DNA of 60,407 nucleotides, counting the filler, from Dugesia japonica (Eukaryota): assembly GCA_001938525.1 (NCBI GenBank). It is 5 parts of 5 records of this genome, joined end to end, with 100 filler letters (N's around TTAATTAATTAA, not from the genome) between each part and the next. Parts side by side here need not be neighbours in the genome. Positions count along the whole stretch, not along the records: positions 10,517 to 20,873 come from MQRL01590355.1; 4 more parts are not named here. One strand, written 5' to 3'. The stretch's first letter is position 1, and every line of letters starts with the position of its first letter. The notes under the pieces are model-generated. The model was not told where the DNA came from and ran no database searches. It worked only from the letters and a program-made list of their open reading frames with translations. Position numbers and translations under genes: made by a program. Shown here one piece after another: positions 1 to 41,989 of the stretch.

Positions 1-1790
1 TCAGTGCAACCGGACTTTAAGAAGCCGTTTATATTAGCAACAGATGCAAGTGGATATACAATGATGTATTGAGCCAGTTAGACTAAGAGGGTCAAGAACG
101 GGTAATCGGGTATTTCAGTAAAACTTTTCAAAGTGCAGAAAAAAACTATAGTACAACAGAGAGAGAAATATTGGCAATAGTGAAAGCAGTAAAACATTTC
201 AACCAACTTATACTTGGACATGAATTAGTAGTGAATAAAGATCATCAACCGCTTACAATGATTGGACAAAAACTGTTACAGATAAATCGAATTGCAAGAT
301 AGGCCATGAAGCTACAAGACTATGCACCATTAGTAAAATATAAATCGGGTAAAGCAAATGCAAATGCAGATTATCTGTCAAGAGCGAGATTCACGGATGA
401 ACTAGAAGAAGATACTGAAACTAAATTGCAAGATAAAGAAGTAATTATTATTCAGCAATTAATGAATCGAGAAATACGAACTTTATCTATGATATTAGCA
501 GTGAACAAAGATTTNNNNNNNNNNNNNNNNNNNNNNNNNNNNNNNNNNNNNNNNNNNNNNNNNNNNNNNNNNNNNNNNNNNNNNNNNNNNNNNNNNNNNN
601 NNNNNNNNNNNNNNNNNNNNNNNNNNNNNNNNNNNNNNNNNNGACGATACGCAATAGTCAATGGATGGTTGATGATGAAAGAAAGCGACAAAATGTTGTT
701 AGTAATACCTAAAAATAGACAAGCAAAAATTTGGGAACAATATCATAATGGAATATTAGGTCATATGTCAGCTAAAAAGACGGAATCAAAATTGAGAGCA
801 AAATATTATTGGCCACATATGACGATCAGTGTAAAAACATGGGTAGAACAATGTTAGATATGCGCAGCAAGGAGAGGAACTAGGAAGAAATTCAAAGTTC
901 CGCTACAACCAATTCCAGTGCCCGCAGCACCGATGGATATAATAGCAATGGATATAATCGGACCATTACCACCAACAAACAATGAAAAGATATACATTTT
1001 AACAGTAGTAGATTATTTATCAAAATTCCCAGAAGCTTTTGCGTTGCGAGATCAGAAAGCAGCAACAATTGCCAAAGTGTTAGTTGACAAAGTATTTAGT
1101 CGTTATGGACCTCCAAAAAAATTTTAACGGATCAAGGGAAGAACTTTATGAGCGAGTTAATGAAAGAAGTTACAAGTTTCTTCAATATTTACAAACTACG
1201 GACATCGGCATATCATCCGCAGACGGACGGAATGACAGAAANNNTCAATCAAACTTTAACAAGAATGCTATCGAGCTACGCTTCAAAGGATCAAAGAGAA
1301 TGGGACAAACATTTGAATTTATACCTTTTTGCATATAGGATGGGAGTCCATCCAACAAGAAGAGCAACACCATTTAGTTTAATGTATGGAAGAGAATGTA
1401 TTATGCCTATTGATCTGGAATATCAACCAGCAATTTCACAATACATAAATGAAGACGATTATGTGACAGGCATGAATAGAGCGAATGAAGGGAATGTGGA
1501 AATTGGCAGAAGCAAATGCAAGATTTAGTCAAGAAAGTTACAAAGAATTACACGATCGTAAAGCCGACGCTCATACATTTAAAAAGGGGGATCTTGTGTT
1601 AGTAAACACACCGAAAATTGATATTGGAAAGACAGATAAATAAAGAGACCAAGCAAAGGCCCATATATGGTGATCGAAACAACGACAACAAATATAAAAT
1701 TAAAAGAATTGGGAAAACCACTAAANAAACCAAGTATCGTGCATGTATCAAGATATAAATTAGCAGCCAAAGAGGTAGAGGCAAATAAAG
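1..1790 (+). pseudogene. pol: Ty3/Gypsy pol, 3' part (RNase H, integrase HHCC, DDE core, GPY/F), decayed
   Basis: Translations give PDFKKPFILATDASG...KNYSTTEREILAIV...DHQPL...YKSGKANANADYLSR (RNase H); YHNGILGH...YYWPHM...C*IC (HHCC); MDIIGPLP...VVDYLSKF...TDQG...TSAYHPQTDGMTE (integrase core); KGPYMV. Several stops and frameshifts. Confidence 0.96.
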
Positions 1791-3418
1791 AAAACTTAGT
1801 AGAAGCAGAACCAGAAACGAGTAAAATGAAACGAGTTCTATTTAAATTAGACAAGCCNNNNNNNNNNNNNNNNNNNNCAATCAAATCAAGAAATCGTGTG
1901 ATGATGTTAACAGCAAAACCAATAACAAAACTTTTGGAGACTCAAGAACCAAACAAAAAAGTTAATCGGTGTAAAATCTGTCAAGAAACAGACAAGAAAC
2001 AGTACCTTTGTTAAAATGTCAATTGCTAAAAATGTGTTATCAATGTTTGAAAACGACACAAGATAAAATCGTGCATGTAGATTGAGAACTTAATAGAGTA
2101 TCATTACAAGTGTCGAGAGAAAACAGATATTAAAAGATCAGCATGTAAACAATGTATGGAAGTAGTACTAAAATTAAACGTGTCCAAGGAGAAATATAAA
2201 CAATGGTGTAATAATTGTATAACAAATGCGAGATGAATAATAAGTAGTGAAATTAGATGTGTCTTCAATCACTTAATGGGCTTATCAGCAGCAAAACCAC
2301 CAAGAGTAAATATTAAATTAACAACTGAGAAGATTATGAAAAAGTTTCAGCTTAATAATGATCTAACTCAATTTGAAAATAGACGAGATATACTTAATAA
2401 ATATTATCATTCAGTGGATAGCGGATTAATTCAAGAGAATTGAATTTGCGACTATCCAAGATGTGGACGATACGGAATGAATGGACACGAATCCGCAGAC
2501 AACTGGATACCACTGTGTAAATCATGCTTATGAATTTCACAGAGAATTACAATGAGGCAACAAGAAAGATAGACATTTAATAAACCAAATCGATTCGAGA
2601 TCGACAAAAANNNNNNNNNNNNNNNNNNNNNNNNNNNNNNNNNNNNNNNNNNNNNNNNNNNNNNNNNNNNNNNNNNNNNNNNNNNNNNNNNNNNNNNNNN
2701 NNNNNNNNNNNNNNNNNNNNNNNNNNNNNNNNNNNNNNNNNNNNNNNNNNNNNNNNNNNNNNNNNNNNNNNNNNNNNNNNNNNNNNNNNNNNNNNNNNNN
2801 NNTGAAATCAGATGCACTTATTGTAATAAAAATCGAATAGAAACCAGGATCGTAATAACGAAAAACAAGTTAAAAGGGGTATGCCTGAAATGTATAATAA
2901 TAATGGGGCTACAACTGAAAGAAGCTGTAGAGAAAATATGGGATATGATAGATACAAATCCAGAACAGACAGAAGCTCAGAAGTGTAATCGATGTGTATC
3001 AAAGAAACCAAATAAATGTCCAATTGTGGCGGAAGACTTAAAGAATTTATGTAATAAATGTTTCCAAAAGACAGAAATCGAGGTGAAAGACTCACTAATT
3101 TTAATAGCACGAAAGAGAAGCTGGTTGATGAATCATCCGGTACAGGATAATCAAGGATGTCTCCAATGTAAAACAAACGATGAAGCAATGGAGTTACCAA
3201 TACCAAATAATGTGTTCAAGAAGTTGTGTTTAATATGTACAGAGATAATGCGATATCAATTAGAGAAAACAGTTAACGAATTACATAAAGTAATGGCACA
3301 ACGGAAAATGGAAGAGCAACATCATTGTATCAAGTGGCAGCCTCGAATCGACGAGGACGCCGATCTTTCGAAAGAAGAGGGTGATTTGAAGAGACAAGGT
3401 GAAGCACTCATTAGGTAA
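1790..3418 (+). pseudogene. Post-integrase extension with six CxxC-x17-19-CxxC zinc-finger-like units
   Basis: CKIC..CYQC (~1970-2046), CKQC-x17-CNNC (~2143-2220), (Y)PRC-x17-CKSC (~2453-2527), CTYC-x19-CLKC (~2813-2893), CNRC-x18-CNKC and CLQC-x19-CLIC (ORF 2903-3418). Frameshifts and an N gap interrupt the frame. Confidence 0.7.
3370..3381 (+). promoter_or_regulatory. Polypurine tract of the Gypsy element
   Basis: GAAAGAAGAGGG at the end of the pol region, preceded by CGAGGACGCCGATCTTTC and followed by an abrupt shift to non-coding AT-rich DNA. Confidence 0.6.
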
Positions 3419-5635: not shown

Positions 5636-6241
5636 TTGGCACCGTTCACGTTGAAGCAGATCAATTGTAGACNATTTATATGTATCGGGTGAGCACCGTG
5701 CATTCTGAAAATAATCTGTGTCGGGTGAGCATCGCACAGAATACACAACAGTAAATAAGGATGCCGAGTGAGCACCAACCTTTATATGCAGCATTAAATA
5801 ATATGAAAAAATATACACGTCCAAATTTGGACATATTAGCAGAATCTGCGATTGAGCACCGCACGATTCAATGATTTTTCAAAGATTTGTAGAACTGCTT
5901 ACTGCAACTGTCAAAATTGATTTTACAGGGCAGTATAAAAGAAAAGATACCATCCAGCAAATTACCATTATTTACCATTTTTTAACATTTAATATTTTTG
6001 CCATATTTTTTCATTGTTAAATTTTACTAAATAGTTATTAGTCACTTATTAAGCACATTAATCGAGATATTTCTCTTAAAAAGAAACTCAGTTCTATCAT
6101 TAACAGACTACAAAGTAAATTTGAATTATATTTATTAGATAAAATCGGAAGACTGGAATGATGCTCATCGTTGACTGGCAACGATCGACATCAATGCTCA
6201 GAGATCCGTTCTTAATTTCGATGCGAGATTATCCACTAATA

Positions 6242-6490
6242 AAAGTTTATACTGCTATAATATTGAAAGTTTATAAAAGTTCATAATGCTATGATATTAA
6301 AAGTTTAAAATGCTATGATATCGAAAGTTGATAATGCGATGATATTGAAAGTTTATAATGCTATAATATTGAAAATTTATACTGCTATAATATCGAAAGT
6401 TGATAATGCGATGATATTGAAAGATTATAATGAGATGATATGTAAAGTTTATAATGCTATGACACTGAAAGATTATAATGATATAATTTT
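6242..6490 (+). repeat. 24-bp minisatellite, about 10 copies
   Basis: Unit AAAGTTTATAATGCTATGATATTG. It explains the repetitive ORFs 6315-6821(+) and 6297-6524(-). Confidence 0.9.
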
Positions 6491-7050
6491 TATGGATAAA
6501 AGAGTGGAACAACAGGTGCATCACTACAATAATCAGTTAGCGGAGATCTTGAGCAGGAACGAACACCGAAAGAAAGAACTGATATCTTTGCTGATACGAT
6601 CAACGGAAGTGCGAGCAATCCAAAGTTACTCAGCTAGAAATGGAAGAATTCAACAAGATGTCGGATCAGCTGAACATAAAAATCGAAGAGATGTTACGAC
6701 AGACTCTAATACCGCTCGATGGTACAAAAGAAAATCAGGAAACTTTATTGTGTATAATGATTCATGTGTTAACAGCAATACAGTTTTAAGTCTAGTATTT
6801 TCATGTCTTGATTATATTTAATGATAATGTGTTAAACTGAATCAAAGGAATAAGAGAAATTAAAAGAGAAATTCGTTTAAATTTTGTGAGTTCCGATTTG
6901 AAATGTTAATGATATATAATATGCTGAATGATTTAATATTTGATAAAATAATGGTTTAATAAGTATTGAATAATGAAGTTGATAAATCAAAACGAGAGCC
7001 GGATAGAAATGGAAATATAAAACGGGATACAGCATAGTCCCGCTGAATCC

Positions 7051-10516: not shown

Positions 10517-12335
10517 TCACCGCCGTGAATAAGGAGTACTGCTCTCGGGAACTAGCTACTTTAGATAGTTCTCAGGCCGAAAGAATTTTATGTTTATCTA
10601 GAAGAGATAAGTCATGAAGGTGTCGGCAACGTTAAGCATACGTAAATGATAGGGTGACCACCCACGGCAGTTCGGTTGGGTTTTGCCTTGAAATCCATTT
10701 TCTACAGCTATTTGCTCATAACCTTACTGAATTTTATTGATAAGGTGAAATGAGTCCTGGTAGAATCAGCCGAAATTGATTCGGAGAAACTTGTGATAAT
10801 TGAATTTCAGTGTTGACTAGAAGGTACATCAGTTGACAAATATGGAATCAGATTAGCGGGAGTTGGAAACCTAGGTAGAGTTTCAACTGTAATTTTACGT
10901 CAGAGCAGCACGAAAGTTACGTATCAGCGGAATTTCGATTTCCTTTGAAATCCTGCACATTAGCCAGTAGACCGGATACTTCTGGAGATTACGATTGAGA
11001 TTGTGACACATAATTTGGAGAGCCTGGAGTTGAATCGAAATAGACTACCAGCTACTCCATGAGATTATAGATTTGCGAAGCGATAATCGCAGCTGAAATA
11101 ATAGACTACCGGTTACTGAGTATTTGAAGAGATTTTAAAGGAGATTTTAGTTAAGATATCGCATGGCTGGAGTCGCCGAGACCACCAATCAGTGCAAGCG
11201 ATCAAGAATAAATACTTGGAACCTTACTGGTTGACCACCGGAAGGAGAACACGGCTGAAGATCTGATCGATGATAATGGAATAGAGAGAATGATAAATGA
11301 TATAGATTTGGAAATGAAATGTATTGATAGGATTTAATGAGGTTGAAGTGATTATTTTTGGATATTTTTGAAATGATTTAAGTGGATTTTAAAAGTTATT
11401 AGAGTTATTGGAGATTTTGGTTGAGACATTGGATATTGGAAATTTGAATTTGTAGTGGATTAATTGAGGTAAATGTATATGAAGAGTATTTTGGAGATAT
11501 TGAATAGAGTATTGTGAAAGCTATGGTGTTTTAGAGATACTAATGTGTACTAATGTGATGAGTAGTTGGGATAAGTATGGCCGAAGTAAAAAAAATGTAA
11601 TACAAAGATTATGATAAAGTAAAACGGTTATAAAGTGTAAAGATACGAGTCGACAAAGTAGATATCGCGTGTGCAAGAACTAAAAATAGTTAAAAGTGTG
11701 CAAATAAAGTCTAAAAAGTATGAGGAGTAGTAAACAAAGGTATGAAATGAATTAAGTTAAATTTGTAAAATTAAAGATGCGCATAACGAATTAAGTGAGT
11801 AAAGTAAAGTCAATGGATCAGATAAGTATGCAGTTTGTAAAAATTAAACTTAAATATGTTTATATGAGAGTGACAAGTAGATGTATAGTAAAGTAAACGA
11901 TAACAAGGGATGATGAAGTGAAAAAGTGTATATTGGGAATTAACAAGTACGAGTTATGAAATTATCAAGTATGTATAGAGAGTTTAATAGGTATGAATTA
12001 AAAGAGTGTGTGTAATTAATAAAGTGTATGCGTAATGAAGAGTGTGTGTATTGATAACAAGCTAACACAAATTAATGATAAATGCATAAAGAAGTGATGT
12101 AATTGGAGTGCAGAAGCCGGGAGGCTATCATATTTTACTTTTAGGTTATTCAACAAATCAAACGATCTAGAACTCAATCAGATAATTCACCATTGATAAT
12201 TCAACTGACAGATACAATCTACGCAATAAGACAAAGGATCAGAAATCTTATTCGAGTAAAAAATCACATCCAGCCAAGACACAGAGATCAGTAAGAGAAA
12301 TCAGCGCGATAACGACATATCGATCACTAAGTCAA

Positions 12336-13690
12336 TTGGATAATTTCAGAAGTGACAGTCCAGAATCAGGTGATGACTCAAATATGTCAGATAACGAGAC
12401 GAATAATTTAAATAAAACGTTGAACGATGACAATAATAGTATTAGCGGAACTAAAAGCAAACATGGATCGGAATGGAAAACGGAGTTTAATGACGAGCAT
12501 TTTTTAGGCGTTCCAGAAAAATTAGAGAGCTTTATAATGGCTTACGAAATTCATCGAAAGGCATGCAGATGGAGTGAAGAGCGAGCAGTAGATAGACTAC
12601 CGTTTTATTTTAAAGGATTGGCAAAAACGATATATTGGAATAAAGCAAAATTGGTCAAAGATGGAATAAAGACGTAGGCAGAACCGAAGAAACTTTAAGA
12701 GGACAACTTCAAACCATTGACATTACAAGGACAAGAAGTTCAAGATTTTACAGCAAAACGATAACTAAAAGATAAATCATTACAAACTTATGCAAACAGA
12801 GTAATGGAGACTCGGGAAATTAGAACTTGGAGAAGACGTGCAAGATAAAGTAATTCTTGGAATATTTATTAAAGGTCTCAGGAATGCAGAAGTGCGTAAT
12901 TGGGTAAACTTAAAACAGCCAAAAACAGTGGATGAAGCAAAAAATGAAGAAGGAGTATCACAACAGGTAGAAGCTTCACTGAAACAGGGAAGCATTTTTA
13001 AAATTGAGGAACCGGAGGTAAAGAAGGTTCCAAAGATAACCAATTTTATACCAGCAAACACGCAACCATTTTTAAAATCGTTGACTCTAGGTCAGAATCA
13101 ATCGGATAACAGAGGACAATTTAATAACTCGCGAGGAGGAAGTAATAATGGACAAAATAATTGGCAATCCGCGGGTAATCAAAACTTATTTAATTGTGGA
13201 AGATATGGACACATTACTAGAGAATGTCGTTCAGGATCATTAAGCTGTACTTTGTGTCAAAAGACAGAACATACGGCAGATCGATGTTTTACATCCAAAC
13301 TCATAGTATGTTATACTTGTAATAAACCGGGTCATACGAGCAGAAATTGTTTCAACAATACAAACCGAGGAGGATATAGAAATAATAATCGGGGATTTCA
13401 GAAGAAGTCAAACAATCAAGCAATCGAGAGTATGATGCAACAAAATAATAATCTAAGACAATAATTGCAAAGTAATCAGAAACAGAGTCAATAACGAGTT
13501 AATATGTTGCAGCAAGTAGTATAGCGACATGAAGCGACACAAAAAAGAGTATATGATAAACTCAAACAAGAACAAGAATACTTAAAGCTCCAAGTCGAGG
13601 AACAACGAGTAGCATAGATGAGATTGAACGAGAGAGCGGCACATAATAATAATGGTCAATGACGGGTGAATATGATGCGAGCAGTAAATG
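12336..13690 (+). pseudogene. gag: Gag (Ty3/Gypsy capsid, three CCHC knuckles, Q-rich coiled coil)
   Basis: FLGVPEKLESFIMAYE...WSEERAVDRLPFYFKGLAKTIY...FIKGL...VRNWVNLKQPKTVDEA; knuckles (F)NCGRYGHITREC, CTLCQKTEHTADRC, CYTCNKPGHTSRNC. Confidence 0.92.
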
Positions 13691-16053
13691 ATGAAGAGGT
13701 CAGAACAAGCTTCGATCAAACGACGAGTAGAGAGCATACTCGATTTAATACAAGGATTCAACGGAACGATCGACAGAAAACATTATTGGAAATTAATGAA
13801 TCATGTAATGGAACTAATGGAGTGTAGTCATCTAAGCCCAAGAACTAAAATGGAATGGCAGCCAATGATCTTGGAGTATGAAAGTGAAATGCGAGATAAA
13901 ACAATACCGGAAGACTTCAAAATCATAATCAATAAAACATGTAAAGAATTTAAAGAGCCATCTGGAGAGATAGCGCAGTATCAGGTCACCTTACAAAATG
14001 ATACGGTAGGAGGACTTTGTGCGCTATTAAGAATAAAAAGGTACTCGAAAGACCGCTGTATGATTATGTGTTATGCTCCAAGACGAGAGTAATCGAACAA
14101 GATGATATTGATGCGCAAATAACAAATTATGAAATTCGACCTGGACGTATAGAGATAATACAAGTCTTAGATTTAACAGAAATTTATAAAACGAAGCAAC
14201 CAGTGCGGCATTATTTACAATTTTGAACAATAAAGGAGATAATGAAGTCCTTGGAGCAGAAACTTTATCGATATACAACGGAGGTACGAAAACCAATGAC
14301 AACTGCTACACGAGACCGTCAACCCGTCAAATAATTCAATTTTGAACCGACTAAATTGGCAACAAGCAGATTAAATATATCTAGCAATGTTAAAACCGAC
14401 AAAGAAATCAATTAGACGATGACGAGATCAGCAATCAAGGTTCCACCATGTAATTTAGGAGTGATGGCACAAGTAAATATGATGACAACTAAAGAGATAT
14501 CTGATACTGAAAATGAAACAGATAATATAATCCAAAAAGAAATCGAGACAATAGAAGCATTACTAAAGATAAAGAGAGCCATCAAGGAACCGACAGCGCG
14601 ATCAAAGATGGAAATGAATCAACGGAGGCTATCGACAAAATATTCTCGATAAAGCGGAATCTAAAGGATAAATTAAACAGATGACGTTATTGGATGACAA
14701 TGAACCACTTGGCGGAAATAACTGAACTAAGACATGTAGATACTACGACTAAATAGAAGTGGAAGCTGCTAATCATGAAATACAAAGCTGAGGTAATAAA
14801 GGAATTAAAAAACAAGGATTATTTTGTCTGGGTCGGAGAATCAATCAAGCCAGTACCGATAGGTGAAGAGAGGTGGAGTCCAGAAAACATGTGACCAATA
14901 ACGTTAAAGGCGGAAATGACGAAATACTATCGTCCTAAAGTCATGAAAATTAAAGGAACAACAATTAGAGATTTAATTGAAGCTTTATCGGAATTAGAAT
15001 GGCCGAAAGCGATAACAGAATATATTATACATATTCCAACAATCAAGATCAAGATGATGTAGACGAACATGTATATACTTATGGAGTCAAACCAGGATGG
15101 GAACTGGAAATTAGATTGACCGACAAAGAACGAGTGTGTCGAGATCAAGAGAAATTATGGCCGCACTTAGATTTTCGAACAACAGAGGAAATTTTGATAT
15201 CGCTGTATGAATGTTTTATGAGTTATATAGTGCCGCTAATTAAAGATACGAAACTCAAAGAACGAAAAAATCAAATTTCAGATTCAAAGACTGAAGACAA
15301 CAAACCGAGTACGAGTCAAGAAAGATTATTCATTATGCGATCAATTTCAAAATTTTTGAGTAAAAGTAATAAGAGCCCGAAACAACCAACGATTATAAAT
15401 GATATTAGCATGAGTAAGTTGAGCGAGATAACGGTAGCAGGGACGATGATTCCGACAACGAATATTATCAGAATGTAGTAACTATAGAAAATTATGTCAA
15501 AGAAACCTTACGTCGAAAAGAAAGAATCCCGAAGCAATCGTATTGGAGAATATTGAATATAGCATGGGATGAACATTATTATTAGTGGACGAGAGGAGCA
15601 AAACGCAGTGCCAACCCAGAGTTAATTGAGAGGTACACAGAGCAAATAAAGAAGGAAACTGTGGGAGCATATTTTGGAGTTAAAATTAATTATCCGACGA
15701 TAGATGATTATTTAGTGACAACAATGCAAACAAAAGTGATTAAACGATTTGAGACGACAAATGCGGGTGAATTAAAGGATATTCTTAGTGAATTACTGTT
15801 AAAACATGGACTGGAGCGATATATAATACTATGTGATTATATGATAATTGAACGAGACAAATTGAATAACTGAGAAATGCATTTAATTGAGTTCAGGTTA
15901 AGACCTGGAGAGATTACAGAATTAACATTAGAATATGATGATGGTCAACCGAAAGAGTTTATGAAGTTATCAGTCAGTAAAATGCGAGCAAAAATGAGAA
16001 AAGTATATCAAGAGGAGATAGACCAATTCGAGTATTTAAAGTTAATACATGAT

Positions 16054-16455: not shown

Positions 16456-18291
16456 TTAATACATGATGATCAAATTGCATTGACAGCAACGACAGGAAAC
16501 GAAATGGAACCATGGAAAACCTTAAAGTAGAATTTAGCAAAAATCGGATTAGTAATAATTTTCATTATATTAAAAGTAGACAGAGGAAAGAGGTAATTGA
16601 TCGAATGGATCAACAAGGGTTGATATTTGGAGAACATTTTAATGAAGCTGTGAGAGCAATAGTTTATTTAAAGGCATCGCAAACGCCGAAATAAGTAGTG
16701 AAAGTAACAGCACATTTTCCAGATGAATCGAGTAAAGAATTTAAAGTGAAACGATGACAAAATGGGAGAAATTGATAAAACAAATACTAAAGTATGTGAA
16801 TAAACAATCATTAATAGACAAAGAAAATGTGGCAGTGGTAAAAAAGAGAAGATATTGTAATTTATTAATTACGGAGGATCTCGATGGAGAAGCAGTGAAA
16901 TTATCAGGTATATGGCCAGGCTTTATGATGAATATATATGTATTTGCAACAGGAGACCGAGAAAGAAATCCTTATATTAGAAGAGAAATCAGAGAGAATC
17001 TATGTCAAAAAACAATACAATATTATGTGGAGAATGTGAATCCATTAATGCCATGTGAGTTACAGGTGCATCCCGAAGACTTAAACTTTGAACTAACTGA
17101 ACGAGTTACAATGTTACAAACTGGATGAACAACGAATCGACTGTACAGATCGAATCAAGAGTTGAACAGATCCGCAGAGATATTAGAGATGAAGAATCGT
17201 AAAAAGAAGACAAATGAAGATGAGGAAAGTTTATATTATTAATCAACGAAGAGGAGATTTCAAAAGTAGACGTTCAGCATTTAATGGATCAAATGCTATT
17301 AAAAAGAGATTTAGCAATAGACGAATTGAGAGATTTAACATTTGAAATATCGAGATATAAAGAGAAATTTACGTGGGGACCGAAACAATTCAGACAGATT
17401 ATAAAACGATGGCATGTCAATGAAATAGATGAAATTGAGCCAAGGGAATACAATTTTCGAAAAGTAGATCCAGAAGAGTATATAACCAGGATAGCTGGCT
17501 TGGCTTACGAAACAATTGGAGATGTAAAGGAGAAAATACCGTTTGAGTCACCATATATTTTGACATTAAATGACAGAGAAATGTTAAGCGAAGATATAAT
17601 TGGAACATTAAACGTTCGTTGCAAGCAGACAGTTTAATTGTATATTAAACCGGAAGTAGGGAAGAGATAAATGAAAAATAAATTAGTTAAAGGTACAACG
17701 TTACCAACTGGAAAACAAATTCAACCGCAGATTACAAAGTATACGAAACCAATTGTAATCGACAGTGAAGAGGGTACGAGTAATACGACGTCAAAGTCAA
17801 CAAAGAGTAAATCAGCGAAGTCAAAAGGACATGTATCGTAAAGAGAAATTACGACAAAAGAAGATGATGTTATTAAACAAGTATTTAGATTACCAAGTGA
17901 TGACGATGACGAAGAGGAATTACAGATAACGAGAATTGATCCAGCAACAATGAGTCAAATGCCAGTGAAAAAGTAAAAGATAGTAAAGAGTAAATGTAAT
18001 CCTAGAGAAGTAGATATTGATATTCTATCACCAAGAATACCAGAGTAAACAAGACAAAAGCCACCTTCATTTTTAGAGAAATCACCTTCATTGATAGAAT
18101 TTGAGCAAAATGAGAGAATGCCAACTCCATTAGAATATGAATTTGGAGAAGAAAATATAATTCCACCAGTAGAATTTGAAGAGGAAATAACGACAACAGA
18201 TAATGCAATCGAGACTACAGATAATCAAGAAGAAACGACAGATCAAGAAATATATCAGAGAATAATGGTCGATGCGGAAACAGAAATGGAG

Positions 18292-18318
18292 CGGAAGGCG
18301 CGAGGCCGACCAAGAGGA
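18292..18318 (+). other. AT-hook motif within the retroelement polyprotein
   Basis: RKARGRPRG in ORF 18091-18897, after a long acidic/Pro-rich linker. Confidence 0.7.
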
Positions 18319-18420
18319 TCTATTACGACAAAAGGAACAACACAACGAAAACTTAAGCAAGATGAACAATTAGCAGCAGTATCACAAGAGGTCACGGAGA
18401 AATTTGAACCAGCAGAATTA

Positions 18421-18729
18421 TCGACAGAAAAAATAATGCATCAAGTATTATTAATATTATATCCGGAATTAAAGATGTGGATTGGAAATACAGTATTATC
18501 AGCAAAGTGTAAACATATTGCAGCATTATTGGAACCAATAATACAGAAGCTAACAGCATTTAAATGGACAGGAAAGAAAGAACGAGATAAATTAGAGAGT
18601 GCAGTTGAACGAATATTTGGAGGATGTCCAACTTCATCAAGAATTGCAGCGGCAGTAACATATTTAGTTAAACGGACGCACTTGGCGGTAATAGACAAAG
18701 GAGGATGGTCAGTGTGGAACGAGAAATTA
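18421..18729 (+). other. Bcl-2-like helical domain (candidate) in the retroelement polyprotein
   Basis: LESAVERIFGGCPTSSRIAAAVTYL resembles BH1 (F..VVEELFRDGVNWGRIVAFF); IDKGGWSVWNE resembles BH2 (IQDNGGWDAFVE); upstream helices sit in BH4 and BH3 positions. Confidence 0.5.
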
Positions 18730-18861
18730 AAACCGGAAACAAATCCACAACGAAACTTAGTAGAAAGAGCACGATTATTGATGAAAGATTACATAGACGA
18801 AATAGGGACAGAATCGAATGATAGAGCAAGGACGAATGCGAGTCCAAATGGTATACAATCA

Positions 18862-20873
18862 ATGTTAATGTTATTAATGTTAATGATGCTAATGTGACGT
18901 GGTGCAGCTATAAAAGTGTATGATTGTGATAAAATGAATATTGGAGAAACGGTATATTCTTTAGTAGACGTGGATGAATGTCCAGAAGTGAATCTAGAGA
19001 GTGTAGAACCAGTTCAAAAAGCGATACCATATTTTGTGTATGAGGAATCAGATTATTACAAGACAAAGGTAAGAAAATGTAGAATGACAATGACAGTGTT
19101 TGTGTATTATTGTGGGACAAGAAGCTATACAGCAATTATCGAAACTGGACAAGAAGTAAGACAGATCTCTCTAACAGGGCAGCAATGGGAAGAAGGATTT
19201 GTAACTGGAAAAATAAGAGTAGCAGACGGAAAAATTGTTAACGCTAAAAGTGGACAGATCATGCAACTAAGAATATTCGCAGCAGAAATTATATCGGATG
19301 AGCATGGAACATGTACTCGAGGTACCTATACTGTAAAAGGAGTAGTCACCAGTTATGTGGTAGTGATATAAAGTTATCGAGTCGAATTAAAGGAATATGA
19401 TATATTCTTCGATACAAAGACACAGATGATGAAAATGTACACTATGTGTAAAGCGTCAGATCTTTAATGTGACACGGGAACATCAACTTTAGTGTATAAT
19501 GTTAATCATCAAGAATGCGCAATGATATTTCTTAAAGAAACGGCTTTAAACTAATATCAAGGTAAAATGGTTATTAAAATAGATGAAAAGGAAACGACGC
19601 GACCAGTGGGGAAGGTAGATGAAGGCATGAAACCAAAAGCAGGTAAAATACACTGGGTAGAAACGCCAGTAGTTTTAATGTCGACTGACAAAAACGATAT
19701 GATCCGTTTGATACGAAAGAAAACNNNNNNNNNNNNNNNNNNNNNNNNNNNNNNNNNNNNNNNNNNNNNNNNNNNNNNNNNNNNNNNNNNNNNNNNNNNN
19801 NNNNNNNNNNNNNNNNNNNNNNNNNNNNNNNNNNNNNNNNNNNNNNNNNNNNNNNNNNNNNNNNNNNNNNNNNNNNNNNNNNNNNNNNNNNNNNNNNNNN
19901 NNNNNNNNNNNNNNNNNNNNNNNNNNNNNNNNNNNNNNNNNNNAAATATTAAAGACGAAATTGGCAACAGCAACTACAAATCCAGATAATGTATCACCAT
20001 TATTACCGATAGAGGAAGGACAATTTTGACGAACATTACCTCTCGTAATGTTCAAATATCGATGTAAAAAAAAGGATGCAACGTTGGCACCAAAGGAACA
20101 TAATAAATGCTATAATGAAGTAGAAATACTTTATGACAGAGAATAACGATTTGTGCAGCCAATCACTAGAGTTATATCACCACGAGGATATATTCCAAAT
20201 TTGATAAACTGTTCAAATTTATTTGAACCTTACTTTAAACTACAGAATAATAAATGGGTACGATTTCCAGAGAGACTTCCAGTAACAAGAGTCAGAAATT
20301 TTTCATGATTACAATTAAAAGGTGGAACACAATTTACACCGTTAAATATAGCGAAAGGAGGAATCTATCAACAAGAAGATTTGGACAAAGCAAGAGAACC
20401 TATGTTGTTTTCAGTAAAGATGATGTAAATTCTATCAAATCTAGTGCAAATAGCAGGATTGAGGATTCACAGCAGATGGTAGACCAAATTACGAATTATT
20501 ACTATCCCCGGATCATTTTCAGACAGCAACAGTCAATGTAATTAAGAAAATGTGGGGTCGATTCATAGTTTTTTGACAAGCAATGGCTGGATTACTAGGA
20601 ATAATTTTCATAAAACAGTCAAAGTGATATTGACACGATTATTGGCATGTTTGGACTTATACAAGAAAGAAAGATATCTTGGTCAATGATGATGGGAATA
20701 TTTCCAGCATGATCAAAGTCGGTAGTATTAAATAGTCATTCAAATGACTTACACTGTACGAGGAGATTATTGCGATATATGAGTCAAATAAAAGGAACAG
20801 ATGAACAGATTGTCAATCAGATTCGAGCAATGTGTAAAGATATGAGGAAACGAAAAGAAAGAAAAACGACAAT
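18862..20873 (+). pseudogene. env: Chuvirus-like (Jingchuvirales/Monjiviricetes type) fusion glycoprotein, env-like
   Basis: Signal peptide MLMLLMLMMLM*RGAA, then VYDC..YSLVDVDEC..KVRKC..YYCG..GTC..VVVI*S..MCKASDL*C; after the gap YRC..KCYNEVEI..FVQPITRVI..INC..W..GGIYQQEDLDKAREPMLF; TM region KMWGRFIVF*QAMAGLLGIIF..WSMMMGIFPA*S. The motifs follow chuvirus G order (GYDC, SLLDVGEC, YYCG, CYNELPV, GIYT.EDLD...MF, LWGGFITFG). Confidence 0.88.
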
Positions 20874-21149
20874 NNNNNNNNNNNNNNNNNNNNNNNNNNN
20901 NNNNNNNNNNNNNNNNNTTAATTAATTAANNNNNNNNNNNNNNNNNNNNNNNNNNNNNNNNNNNNNNNNNNNNTTAATCTCATTTCATAATATGACATCA
21001 TTTTTCCCAATTAAATGAATTAGGATTAAGTTTCAATATTCCATAAAAAGAAATGTCATAAAACACTATAAATACGAGACGAATACACTACAAGTTGACG
21101 TAGACGATAGTTTGGAATAAATTTACATGAAGGCGTGTAAAAGAAGACT

Positions 21150-36230: not shown

Positions 36231-36460
36231 TGTCAGGATAAGTAAATGAATATTTTAAGTTTTAATTTNNNNNNNNNNNNNNNNNNNNNNNNNNNNNNNN
36301 NNNNNAAGTTGTTTAAATATTCAGAGTGCTTGACAGAAGATTGAAAATCAAATAAAAAGAGTAAATAATTAAAAGGTGGAATTTCTAATTGTTTTAGAAT
36401 AAATATGTGAAAGTATGACTGACTATTTACTGAATGAGCACGTATGCCCTATTTCTAATA
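36231..36460 (+). repeat. 5' LTR
   Basis: TGTCAGGATAAG...TTTCTAATA, direct repeat of 40559-40788. Confidence 0.95.
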
Positions 36461-36473
36461 TGGTGGCAGCGGT
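36461..36473 (+). promoter_or_regulatory. Primer binding site, tRNA-Leu
   Basis: TGGTGGCAGCGGT is complementary to the tRNA-Leu 3' end ACCGCTGCCACCA. Confidence 0.85.
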
Positions 36474-36501
36474 TAATACAGATAGTATTACGGACCATCT
36501 T

Positions 36502-37514
36502 ATGTCTGATATCTACAGAAGACATGATGACATAGAAAAATTGATATGCAAGTGCGAAATGTATTTCGGCGTCAAAGGAATTAACAATAAAAAAAGATCA
36601 GGAATGGTTTGTAACGTGTTTGATAGAAGAGGAACTAGTTGGGAAGTATATTGAATTATTTAAAAAACAGAAGTATTCCAGGATCGACTTCACATAGCTT
36701 TTGGAAAGGAAAAAAGCATGATACGGGATTTCAGAGAACTATTAGATTTCAAACGAAATCATGAAGATGTGGAAACATATATTTCCAAAGTAGAAGAATT
36801 GATAAATAACTTATTTTCAAATAAAATTTTATACAAGAAAACATGGTGGCAAAGATGCTGATTCACTGTGCAGGCGATAGACGCGCAGAAGAAGTACTCC
36901 TTAGGAAAATAAATGAAGTTAATGGCATTAAAGAAACTTTGAGATCGTTAGAGAAACTGAAGAATAAAAGAGAACAAATTAATGTAGTTCAAAGCAGTCC
37001 AAAAGAAACGGTAAGATTTAATCAGACAGCTCGAAATGTGGATAGAAAACAACAACATAGTTGGTTAAAGTCTAATGATATATTTAGATGTTGGGAATGT
37101 GATAAAAAAAAAGGCCATAGTCGCCGAGAATGTCCGATGAGAAGACAAATGAAATGCTGGACGTGCGAAAAAGAAGGTCATATTAGTCGAGACTGCAGAG
37201 AAAATCAGATGAGACGATGCTTTTGATGTGAATTAAAGGGACACATTTTTAGAGAATGTAAAGAAACAACCAGCAATCAGACGAAGAACGAGGTTAGATC
37301 AAATATGTTGAACAGTAATGGAGGAATGAATCGAACTTATTATGACAACAAGAGAGTTAATGGATTTTAAAATATTAGATGTGCACCATTACATGTGATT
37401 CAGGAAGACTAAGAGCAAGGATTAAGTTATGAAAAGGATGGAGAAGATGAGAGATGAAGATTCCCAAATGTAGAGGCTCCGACAGTAGAGGAGCTAGTTG
37501 GAGCTGCATATTAA
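36502..37514 (+). pseudogene. gag: gag with three CCHC knuckles
   Basis: CWECDKKKGHSRREC, CWTCEKEGHISRDC, CF*CELKGHIFREC. Confidence 0.88.
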
Positions 37515-37699
37515 CTGGAAGTTAAATGGTATATCCTCAGGGAGTGGAGAAGTGAGAAGATGTGAATGCGATTGGAGAGAAAGTATTTAATTTTATGAAA
37601 AATGAGTGGTAGAAGTAGATAAGAGAGATGGAAAATGTTGGAGATAAAGAGACAAGCAGAGGCAGTAATTGAGTATGATGTATTTCAGGGTAGACAGGG

Positions 37700-40545
37700 A
37701 TGGGAGATAGGGATGGGAGATCAGTGGTGGGACCTTTGTTAGATTCGGGGGCAAGAGTAAACGTAATGAATTCAGAATGCCTTGTGAAGTTGGGGAAAGT
37801 ATCATTAGAATGTTGCGGGACAAAACTTTGGTTTGCAAACGACAGTTTATTGGAGAAATTGGGTACAGTTAGATTGTGGGTGCAATGGAAAGGAAGAGAG
37901 AAACAGATATTATTTACGGTAGTGAAACAAGTAGTACCGGATATTATAGGTGGTATGGAATTCATGAATGCGTTCGGGTTTTCATTGATATAACGAGGTT
38001 TAAATAGCAGTAATGCAGAATCCAAGAAGTATATTTGCAATATAGAAGATAATTTCGGGAAACAAGCTGACACAGATGAACAATGGAGGAAATCGGACAG
38101 TACGATAAATTGGAAAGGAGATGATCGGTTGGAGGATGTTTGTAGACAAAAATGGGGAGTATTTATTGCAGAAAAATTATATGTGGGTCGAACAAATACT
38201 GTTGATCACAAGATCATTACGAAAGGAGAGCCAATTAAAACGAAACCCTACATAAAACTGATAAATTTGGAGAGCAAAATTGACGAAACAATTTAAAACC
38301 TGTTTGATAAAGGCATAATAAGACGATGTAATTCTCAATGGAATTCACCATTGGTATTCGTATGGAAGAAAGATAAACAGGATATCAGGTTATGTTTAGA
38401 TTTCAGGAAGCTGAAAGCTATTACAGAGAGACAAGCGTTCCCAATGCCGAATATTGAATAGATGCTAGATATGTTGAAAGGGATGGCTTACTTCAGCACA
38501 ATAGACCTTGGTAATGCTTATTACCAAGTAGAGTTAGACAGCGAATAGCAGGAAAAGACAGCATTTTCGACTAAACAGGGTCAGTACTGTTTCAACAGAA
38601 TGACGTTTGGCATTGCAGCAGCGCCGGATACGTTTCAGAAGCTGATGGTAAAGGTGACGAAAGACATCAAGGGATCAAGTATATTTAGTTGATATCTTTA
38701 TTTTTTCTAAGACACGAGAAGAACATTATGGAATTGTAAAGAGTGTTGGACAGCATTAGTGAAGCAAGTCTCTGTATTAGCCCAGAAAAGTGCATTTTCC
38801 TTCAGAAAGAAATTAAAGAAATTAAAGAAATTTGTCTTAGGACAAATTATCAATTCAGAAGGAATTTGTACAGATCTGGTAAAAATAGAAGCTATTCAAG
38901 CTTTTGAAGAACCATTATGGGAGAAGAAATTGCGTAGCTTCATGGNCATCTGTAATTATAGAAAGTTTTTTCATGAGTATGCAAATAAATCTAGAAAATT
39001 GGAGCAGCTATGTAGCGGTCAAGGTAATACGAAGATAATTTGGTCTTTAGAGTTATCAGATGTGTTTAAAGAAATGTAGAAGGCTTTAATTTCTACATCA
39101 ATTTTAGGATATTTGAATGTGCATGAGGAATTTATTCTAGACACCGATGCTAGCTTTAGAACGAATGATGCGATGCTGTCGCAAAGGGATGAAGACGGAA
39201 ACGAAAAAGTGATAGCATACGGGTCTCAAGCAATGTCTACCCACGAAAAAGGATACTGCATAACTCGTAAGGAACTCCTGGAAGTATATTACTTTTGTTT
39301 AAGCTTAAAACATTATTTATATGCTTGACCATTTATTTTAAGAACGGATCACAAAGCGATCACGTTCATGTTGCATACAAAAAAACCAATTACAATGCAG
39401 TTCCAAACCTGGATTAATTTTCTAAGTAGTTTGGACATGAAATTGGAATTCAGGAAAAGTGAGAATCACGTCAATTCAGTTGTTTTAAGTAAATTGTACA
39501 GTGATAAATGCGTACAGTGCCAATTAATACATGAGGAGGTAAAGATGGGAAAATTGAAGACGAGAAGACTAGGAGACACTGAGGAAATAAAGAAGTTGGA
39601 TATTGACATGAGTGGAAATAGAATGTCGTAGAAAATTTGGCTATTAGANGAGACAATGGAGCAGAAGATTGTGGAGATTCATAAAGCATTATGTCATGGA
39701 GGCATAGAGAAATCGGAGAAATATATCTGCTAAAGATACGAAGAGAGACAGTTAAGATCAAGAATTAGAGAGATTATAAGAAGCTGTATTTTCTGTCAAA
39801 AAGCAAAGATTTCGACAAGTACAAGACTCGAAATAACTAAAGAATCAGACAGTTTTACTCCGTTCGAAGTGATGTTTATAGATATTTTTGGCCCATTAAA
39901 TGAGACGAAGAATAGGAAGAAATACATCCTTGTCATGATCGACCAATGTAAGAAGTTTGTAGTTTTATTGAGTTTAATTAGACAGGATGAAGGTACGATT
40001 CGAGATTGTATTTTGAAGCACTAGACTCTGAAATTTGGATGTCCAAGAGTGATACGTTCTGATTGCAGGAGTGTCTTTGAATGAAAATAGATGAAACAGA
40101 TAAAGCAAAGATTACGTGGCAAGTGTTGAGTCCTTATCATCATAGGACAAACGCTCAAATTGAACTCCAATTTCAGACGATTAGGGATTTATTAAACGCA
40201 TCGATACGAGATAGAGGAACGAGATAGAGGACAAAACAGAAAACTACACAATGTAGGCCGGCAGAGTTAGTATTCGGGAGACAGTTGTACAGGGAAGGGT
40301 GGTGGTCAAAAGAGAAGACGAACAAAAATCAGATGACAGATATAGCTAAGGATAAAAAAGCCAGACAAGAAGACATTTTCAAATAGGTGAGAAATTACTG
40401 GTAGAAGTAGAATCTTGAGATAAAAACCAAGATCGGTATGAGAGACCGTATTTAGTGATGAAAAAGATTCATGAGAGACGTTATGTAGTAGAAAGGAAAG
40501 ATGGAAAAAGATTGACGCGGAACATCGAAAAACCTAAAAATTTCT
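37700..40545 (+). pseudogene. pol: pol (protease, RT, RNase H, integrase), many stops and frameshifts
   Basis: LLDSGA (protease); SQWNSPLVFV.KK..IRLCLDFRKL..FSTIDLGNAYYQV..KTAFST..RMTFG (RT); ILDTDAS..VIAYGS..TRKELL..TDHKA (RNase H); HKALCHGG..CIFC..IDIFGPL..SPYHHRTN (integrase). Confidence 0.93.
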
Positions 40546-40558
40546 GGAAGGAGGAGGA
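40546..40558 (+). promoter_or_regulatory. Polypurine tract
   Basis: GGAAGGAGGAGGA immediately before the 3' LTR. Confidence 0.85.
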
Positions 40559-40788
40559 TGTCAGGATAAGTAAATGAATATTTTAAGTTTTAATTTAAGA
40601 AATTAATTAGAAATTAATTTAAATAAAAAAAAGAAGTTGTTTAAATATTCAGAGTGCTTGACAGAAGATTGAAAATCAAATAAAAAGAGTAAATAATTAA
40701 AAGGTGGAATTTCTAATTGTTTTAGAATAAATATGTGAAAGTATGACTGACTATTTACTGAATGAGCACGTACGCTCTGTTTCTAATA
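40559..40788 (+). repeat. 3' LTR
   Basis: Matches the 5' LTR except for three substitutions near its 3' end. Confidence 0.95.
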
Positions 40789-41989
40789 AATATCATTATT
40801 ATTATTAGTCTTATCGTAATTATTACTGTCTTAAAAATTAAAAGTTGCTACTGAGGGTTATTTATAACTGATTACTTCTAAAAGGAGGTGTAATTTTATT
40901 GTTTCCTTGTTAATATTATCGTAGCGCCTTGATTTAACAATAAAAAACCATTATTATAGATCATTATGAACTGCAATTAATGAAACACTAATTAAAATTT
41001 ACTATAATGATTCAATACCACAAAATTTAATTAACCATGGTAACAAATCATCCATTTTATTAGCAAGTTGCAATTAATTTAAAATTTTTTAATTATAAAT
41101 ATTACTAATGTTTGAACTCATTACGACTGTGCAAAAAGAAACATTTAATGAAAGTTATTTATCATTAGTTACAAACATTTATTGATTACAGTATAATTCA
41201 AAGTTTACATAAACTAATTAAAACTAACGTGAACTGCATATTCATCTGGAGCAAGCACAGAGCGCGATTAGAAATCACTATGGCAACCCGATTGAATTGA
41301 TTTATCTATGTCCACTTACATGTCAACACTAGAATTTGTTCTTCTTTCCATTTTCACACTAACGTAATCGGTATTTTAATTAAACTGCACACCTACGCTG
41401 TATATCCTTTATTCATTACACACCTCGAAATCCACGACCCCTTTTTACTATAATTGTTTTACCCGCTGCTTTTTCCTTAATAGAAAGTCTTCGGTTTCTT
41501 ATATTTTCGTATAAATTTAATTTCCTTTTTATAATAAATCATTTAAATTTGTATGATTTATTTTATTTATAATGGTTAAATTCATTACGACTGTGCAAAA
41601 AGAAACATTTAATTTATTTTTCTTTTCAATTTATTAGTTAGATTGCCATTTTTTGTTTATAAACTGAAATTTAATTTAATTTAGGCGTTTCTTTCCATAA
41701 AAAAGTTATTTAATTTATTTTTTACCTCTTCAATTATTAACTTAATTCAATTTTTTTTCTACTTAATGAATTATTTGCTTCAGTTATTACTTGCCATTTT
41801 CTTTGTTTTCTCAGTTTGCTAATGACTTCTGTCATTTCCTTTCTTCTCTGGTTTTCTTATTTCCATGTTGTTTTCTTTTCTGCTTTAAGATTTTACGGAT
41901 CATCTCATATTTTTTAATTCCCTAATCTTGGTTTTTCTTTAATTACTTCTTTCTTTAACTACCATATTCGTCAATAGCCAAAATACTTA

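Follow-up and report, generated by a model that had tools for sequence, protein, structure and literature searches.

The stretch analysed here (the window) comprises 60,407 nucleotides of the Dugesia japonica assembly GCA_001938525.1, filler included, and all coordinates are positions along its whole length. The domain under study, a putative Bcl-2-like domain at 18421..18729 on the plus strand, lies in the part taken from MQRL01590355.1 (10,517 to 20,873) and is carried by a decayed element of the long terminal repeat (LTR) type, likely a Burro-type Ty3/gypsy element, whose other features given below are on the same strand. It is encoded in an open reading frame (ORF) of 282 codons (18049..18897) that also specifies an acidic linker, a basic RGRPRG motif and a signal/anchor segment. 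Translation of this ORF bore out the positions of the four peptides that an initial annotation had assigned to the Bcl-2 homology (BH) regions, all of which are in frame (18421-18462, 18496-18534, 18592-18666 and 18691-18723). An in-frame stop at 18895-18897 separates the ORF from env. Because env continues in the same frame past this one stop and gag lies upstream, what the ORF encodes is the section of a broken polyprotein that precedes env; it is not a free-standing gene.

Along the element the order is gag, linker, domain, signal and env. The gag remnant (12186..13464), interrupted by stops and frameshifts, contains CCHC zinc knuckles in 12805-13464 (Pfam zf-CCHC, E 3.4e-11) and gave weak tblastn matches to the Gag regions of proteins P0009 and P0005. 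The N-terminal part of env (18898..19724), a Monjiviricetes-type fusion glycoprotein with three stops, matches PF24664 at E 7.8e-21 and ends at an assembly gap, and a later, frameshifted part follows at 19946..20820 (PF24664 E 2.6e-17; tblastn); env found 123 matches among protein representatives. The zinc knuckles upstream and the in-frame env downstream support the retroelement context that had been proposed for the domain.

Probable Bcl-2 ancestry and helix assignments

Six relatives of this env bear the domain at the same place, ahead of the env signal, and their reading frame continues without a stop from the domain across the signal to env. All six match the Pfam Bcl-2 family (PF00452) weakly, with a best E value of 2.1e-5 for the cut-out domains and whole-protein scores of 16.5-20.1 bits, below the curated cut-off of 31.4 bits. 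A profile of the six relatives matched Bcl-xL at E 2.5e-5, and adding the window improved the best Bcl-xL match to 4.3e-6. In a MAFFT alignment the window was collinear with the relatives from helix 1 to helix 5; a single gap of 29 columns opens after 18675, beyond which GGW aligns again. On a five-relative profile with ordinary gaps, the 160 residues of the window scored 24.6, a value reached by 1 of 300 shuffles, and when a long deletion was made cheap, an option picked after the gap had been seen, they scored 32.9 (0/300 shuffles as high); as a control, the pre-env linkers of all 11 relatives lacking the domain scored at most 21.3 on the same profile. A homolog search from the alignment returned P0044 as the sole match among 875 candidates. 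With the relatives included, the resemblance exceeds chance, modestly, and the collinear alignment, the shuffle and linker controls and the PF00452 and Bcl-xL matches together support the ancestry originally claimed, the window domain being very probably Bcl-2-derived.

The assignment of individual helices to BH4, BH3, BH1 and BH2 likewise agrees with the alignment to the relatives and to Bcl-xL. Helix 1, at the BH4 position (18421..18462), aligns to the first helix of P0044 and lies outside the Bcl-xL match, while helix 2, at the BH3 position (18496..18534), is reached by that match once the window joins the profile. Helices 4-5 (18592..18675) form the BH1-like region, where the Arg of the NWGR motif is kept and its Trp and Gly are absent. 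Across the six sequences spanning BH1 (the window and relatives), a basic residue stands at the Arg position in 6/6 (Arg itself in two), the pattern [RK]-hydrophobic-x-x-small is kept in 6/6, and the NWGR Trp and Gly occur in 0/6. The BH2-like region (18691..18723) carries a GGW that matches the GGW of Bcl-xL and is shared by five of the six relatives, the remaining one having QGW; GW is thus present in 7/7 rows, an invariance that is partly by construction because the relatives were chosen on GW. The RI..A and GGW signatures stressed in the initial annotation are hence conserved among the carriers, the former as the BH1 pattern.

The BH3-binding groove of Bcl-2 proteins is built from helices 2-5, with the Gly and Arg of NWGR important for binding (PMC9027176, PMC11209288, both in excerpt). 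That intact copies would be pro-survival through this groove is somewhat the favoured view. It is fairly unlikely that the domain, although Bcl-2-derived, has instead been repurposed towards a non-apoptotic host partner, in innate signalling or autophagy. Several poxvirus Bcl-2-fold proteins bind such partners, the NWGR motif is eroded family-wide, with Trp or Gly in none of the six sequences, the best-kept part of the family domain is its structural core (helices 4-7), and an anchor formed by the env signal would put the domain at the endoplasmic reticulum (ER) and not at mitochondria. Against repurposing stand the basic residue at the NWGR Arg position in all six sequences and the case of ORFV125, which has SPGR in place of NWGR and still binds BH3 peptides, more weakly; other divergent viral Bcl-2 members also deviate from NWGR (excerpts of PMC9027176). 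Burro elements have BIR/IAP domains as well, an indication that apoptosis is the target.

The window copy and its missing helix 6

Searched alone, the window domain gave no match in Pfam, including none to PF00452 at its curated cut-off of 31.4 bits, no PDB sequence match at E up to 10 and no homolog among 322 and 1821 candidates in two homolog searches. A local hidden Markov model (HMM) gave the window 3.6 bits, a score that 83 of 2000 shuffles reached, hhalign against the relatives gave a probability of 3.5%, and blastp against P0044 gave E 0.039. These results weigh against a Bcl-2 origin, and on the evidence of the domain alone the original Bcl-2 call could not be told from chance; the deletion of one quarter of the domain would, however, depress local scores of just this kind. 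The best score in the ESM Atlas was 0.78, to unnamed clusters, and no related locus was found in metagenome contigs. Chance resemblance, in which the relatives have the domain and the window lineage does not, would account for the missing direct match and for a local HMM score merely within the top 4% of shuffles, but it is made improbable by the shared position ahead of the env signal, by the collinearity over helices 1-5 plus GGW, by shuffle and linker controls that favour the window and by the gain in the Bcl-xL match when the window joins the profile.

A single-sequence structure model of the window domain showed six helices at pLDDT 48. Foldseek of this model returned nothing under 0.001 (globins on top, Bcl-xL at rank 15 with E 2.3) and a wide search generic helical bundles only, and the model was dropped as uninformative on account of its pLDDT. 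In the fold comparison envisaged in the initial annotation, the model of one relative lists Bcl-2 proteins exclusively, none of them significant, and the window's own model gave no meaningful match.

The short spacing between BH1 and BH2 that had been remarked upon was confirmed, the YL that closes the BH1-like helix being ~11 residues away from GGW in the window as against ~38-40 residues in the five relatives spanning the region. The helix 5-helix 6 hairpin, present in 5/5 of these relatives, lacks ~29 residues in the window, corresponding to helix 6 and missing at 18676..18702. Contigs of the same family were placed on 1.2 kb at 487-1232 per run in four sequencing runs (X1, X2 and X7 guessed to be DNA, X5 of unknown kind); the element family is abundant, although contig depth gives no copy number. 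No RNA run was listed as containing it, a negative that carries no information on expression. In one family contig 18693 is joined to 18703 across unknown letters, and loose contig ends of 15-92 letters lie ahead of 18700-18724, which suggests that other copies have sequence in the region 18676-18702 that the window lacks. Contig depth falls at 18656-18696 in 4/4 runs, a drop that was not used as evidence by itself. Family contigs also vary at the stop codon 18895-18897, and because the contigs differ and the six relatives are open into env, both lesions are likely peculiar to this copy.

The short spacing is therefore quite probably a deletion in this copy and not a feature of the family. A compact or permuted Bcl-2 domain, in which a helix at 18754..18840 replaced helix 6 throughout the family, would fit the frame remaining open across the gap and the long amphipathic helix that the single-sequence model places after GGW, between BH2 and the hydrophobic segment. 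There is little likelihood of this, since family contigs bear extra letters just ahead of GGW, and P0049, with which phmmer aligns the extra helix, possesses helix 6 as well as a comparable stretch following GGW. Helices 5 and 6 are the core hairpin of the Bcl-2 fold, and because helix 6 is missing both folding and function are unlikely in this copy; with many stops elsewhere in addition, a working protein is unlikely to be made from it. Being broken, the window copy is poor material for functional work, for which the natural intact relatives P0044 or P0009 are better.

Predicted mode of action

The hydrophobic segment at 18853..18897, which terminates at the in-frame stop, is the env signal sequence and a possible tail anchor. 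It has a hydropathy of 2.04 and ends 8 residues ahead of YDC, and the PF24664 match begins at this segment (profile position 5). It lies 51 residues past GGW in the window and 27-59 residues past GW in 7/7 carriers, where a tail anchor would sit; the same hydrophobic signal is also present in 11/11 relatives without the domain.

In the arrangement proposed here, the polyprotein would enter the ER membrane at the env signal, signal-peptidase cleavage would free env into the lumen, and the Bcl-2 domain would stay cytosolic, held by the env signal as a tail anchor, with the element's protease releasing it from Gag. The combination of these steps (anchoring after cleavage, on the ER side, with release from Gag by the protease) is put forward tentatively, its chances being just short of even. 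In intact copies the membrane-held domain would bind pro-death BH3 helices and so keep the producing cell alive. The best explanation of the whole, judged reasonably likely, is that of a host-derived Bcl-2 domain in a Burro-type Gag-Env-Pol polyprotein, pro-survival in intact copies and probably dead here. A Bax/Bak-like domain that permeabilises membranes and aids particle exit is very unlikely: although Bak and Bax are among the weak matches and pro- and anti-apoptotic members are not separable by sequence alone, Bcl-xL is the best match throughout, the element already has its own env, and the viral Bcl-2 homologs described in the literature, as far as surveyed, are pro-survival.

Burro1 is said, second-hand, to protect stem cells via its IAP domain (excerpt of PMC13465017). 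It is possible, though doubtful, that the abundant element family makes a working membrane-anchored Bcl-2 mimic, with the env signal reused as anchor and BH3 binding achieved without the NWGR Trp and Gly, protecting the cells that replicate the family and forming a second anti-death arm beside the Burro1 IAP. If true, such a retroelement mimic would be a case of a genomic parasite tuning host cell death, which matters where an animal relies on adult stem cells.

The surrounding elements and known systems

Between gag and the ORF, ~4.6 kb of decayed coding sequence gave no Pfam matches. A possible ubiquitin-like domain at 17422..17616, upstream of the Bcl-2-like domain, gave a weak local match to a stretch of P0004 labelled ubiquitin-like by eye (1/200 shuffles as high, the best of nine tests), with no match in Pfam and no ubiquitin-like match in PDB. 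By eye, both 14654-14920, which ends in GG, and 17422-17652 look ubiquitin/SUMO-like, with no Pfam match. The basic RGRPRG motif (18301-18318), ahead of the Bcl-2-like domain, is AT-hook-like; similar GRP[KR] motifs lie 102-229 residues ahead of env in P0003, P0005 and P0008, which have no Bcl-2 domain, and in P0009, which has one. At the other end, a GC-richer, non-coding stretch that starts at an assembly gap (10517-11400) is followed by a long purine-rich leader (11400-12200), possibly an LTR or a 5' untranslated region.

The window held no LTR pair for the element and no reverse transcriptase (RT) in this copy, and no pol followed env before the gap at 20874, where the copy stops. In the env relatives P0003, P0010, P0019 and P0026, env is followed by protease, RT and integrase, and in P0006 by a protease; in P0003, P0005, P0006 and P0008 env is followed by between two and four stretches resembling aspartic protease. 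The env-pol polyprotein P0010, labelled as hypothetical and assigned to a metagenome bin of Flavobacteriaceae, is probably eukaryotic contamination. An env tree of 18 rows, from which P0044 and P0049 were left out as too short, was mostly unresolved (five changes of the Bcl-2 label versus 5.2 in shuffles), so that gain and loss of the domain could not be distinguished.

Other elements were observed in the window. A second decayed element at 4-3418 has RNase H and integrase that resemble pol in the env relatives described above (P0003, E 6e-92), with a Cys-rich ORF region of unknown nature after the integrase (~2000-3418; no Pfam match in 2573-3415), and may represent the 3' half of a related element carrying cargo past the integrase. 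A small decayed Ty3/gypsy element without env (36300-40800) retains gag knuckles, RT, RNase H and integrase and is flanked by a 155-nt direct repeat of 98% identity (36306-36460 and 40634-40788), likely parts of its LTRs. A 24-nt tandem repeat of ~9 overlapping units lies at 6228-6515, within ORF 6309-6821.

Large DNA viruses are a well-known source of Bcl-2 mimics. With Bcl-xL, A179L, FPV039, KsBcl-2 and ORFV125 the window domain shares the helix order, the BH1 Arg, the BH2 GGW and a C-terminal hydrophobic segment; unlike them it shows ~20% identity, no NWGR Trp or Gly, a missing helix 6 and a setting in a retroelement polyprotein in place of a DNA-virus gene. The predicted layout is like that of viral Bcl-2, while this copy falls short of strict family membership, lacking helix 6 and NWGR and staying below the Pfam cut-off. 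The GAG-ENV-POL HSV/gB-type errantiviruses of Platyhelminthes (Smed_errantivirus_1-6) also have env between gag and pol, and the window env is, by eye only, most like Smed_errantivirus_5 and 6; the main text of PMC13524379 contains no occurrence of Bcl or apopto-, and its supplement rows, as far as surveyed, consist of env ectodomain parts alone.

Among the matches listed, the literature as surveyed describes Bcl-2 in such elements solely in PMC6431247; Grohme 2018, to which that paper credits the Burro BCL2-like motif, and a 2026 Dev Cell paper on Burro1, both outside the survey, may say more. Section 7 of PMC6431247 reports that the Burro elements of planarians contain Gag, MATH, BIR, ankyrin, Ubi2/SUMO-like and BCL2-like motifs, and that within a single ORF their mononegavirus-like env lies between BCL2 and protease; it gives no helix-level detail, functional test or statement on anchoring. 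The element in the window, likened to Burro by this description and not by sequence, differs in having no BIR, MATH, ankyrin or RING match in Pfam. Like the giant Ty3/gypsy Burro / GYPSM1, it has a CCHC Gag, a long accessory region and a BCL2-like motif directly before an in-frame, mononegavirus-like env, and decayed Burro copies with stops and frameshifts are mentioned as well (PMC6431247); the ~2,200 codons from gag to env in the window are consistent with a polyprotein as large as that of Burro. That Burro elements contain the domain has been published before; what the window copy contributes is a divergent lineage together with a description at the level of single helices.
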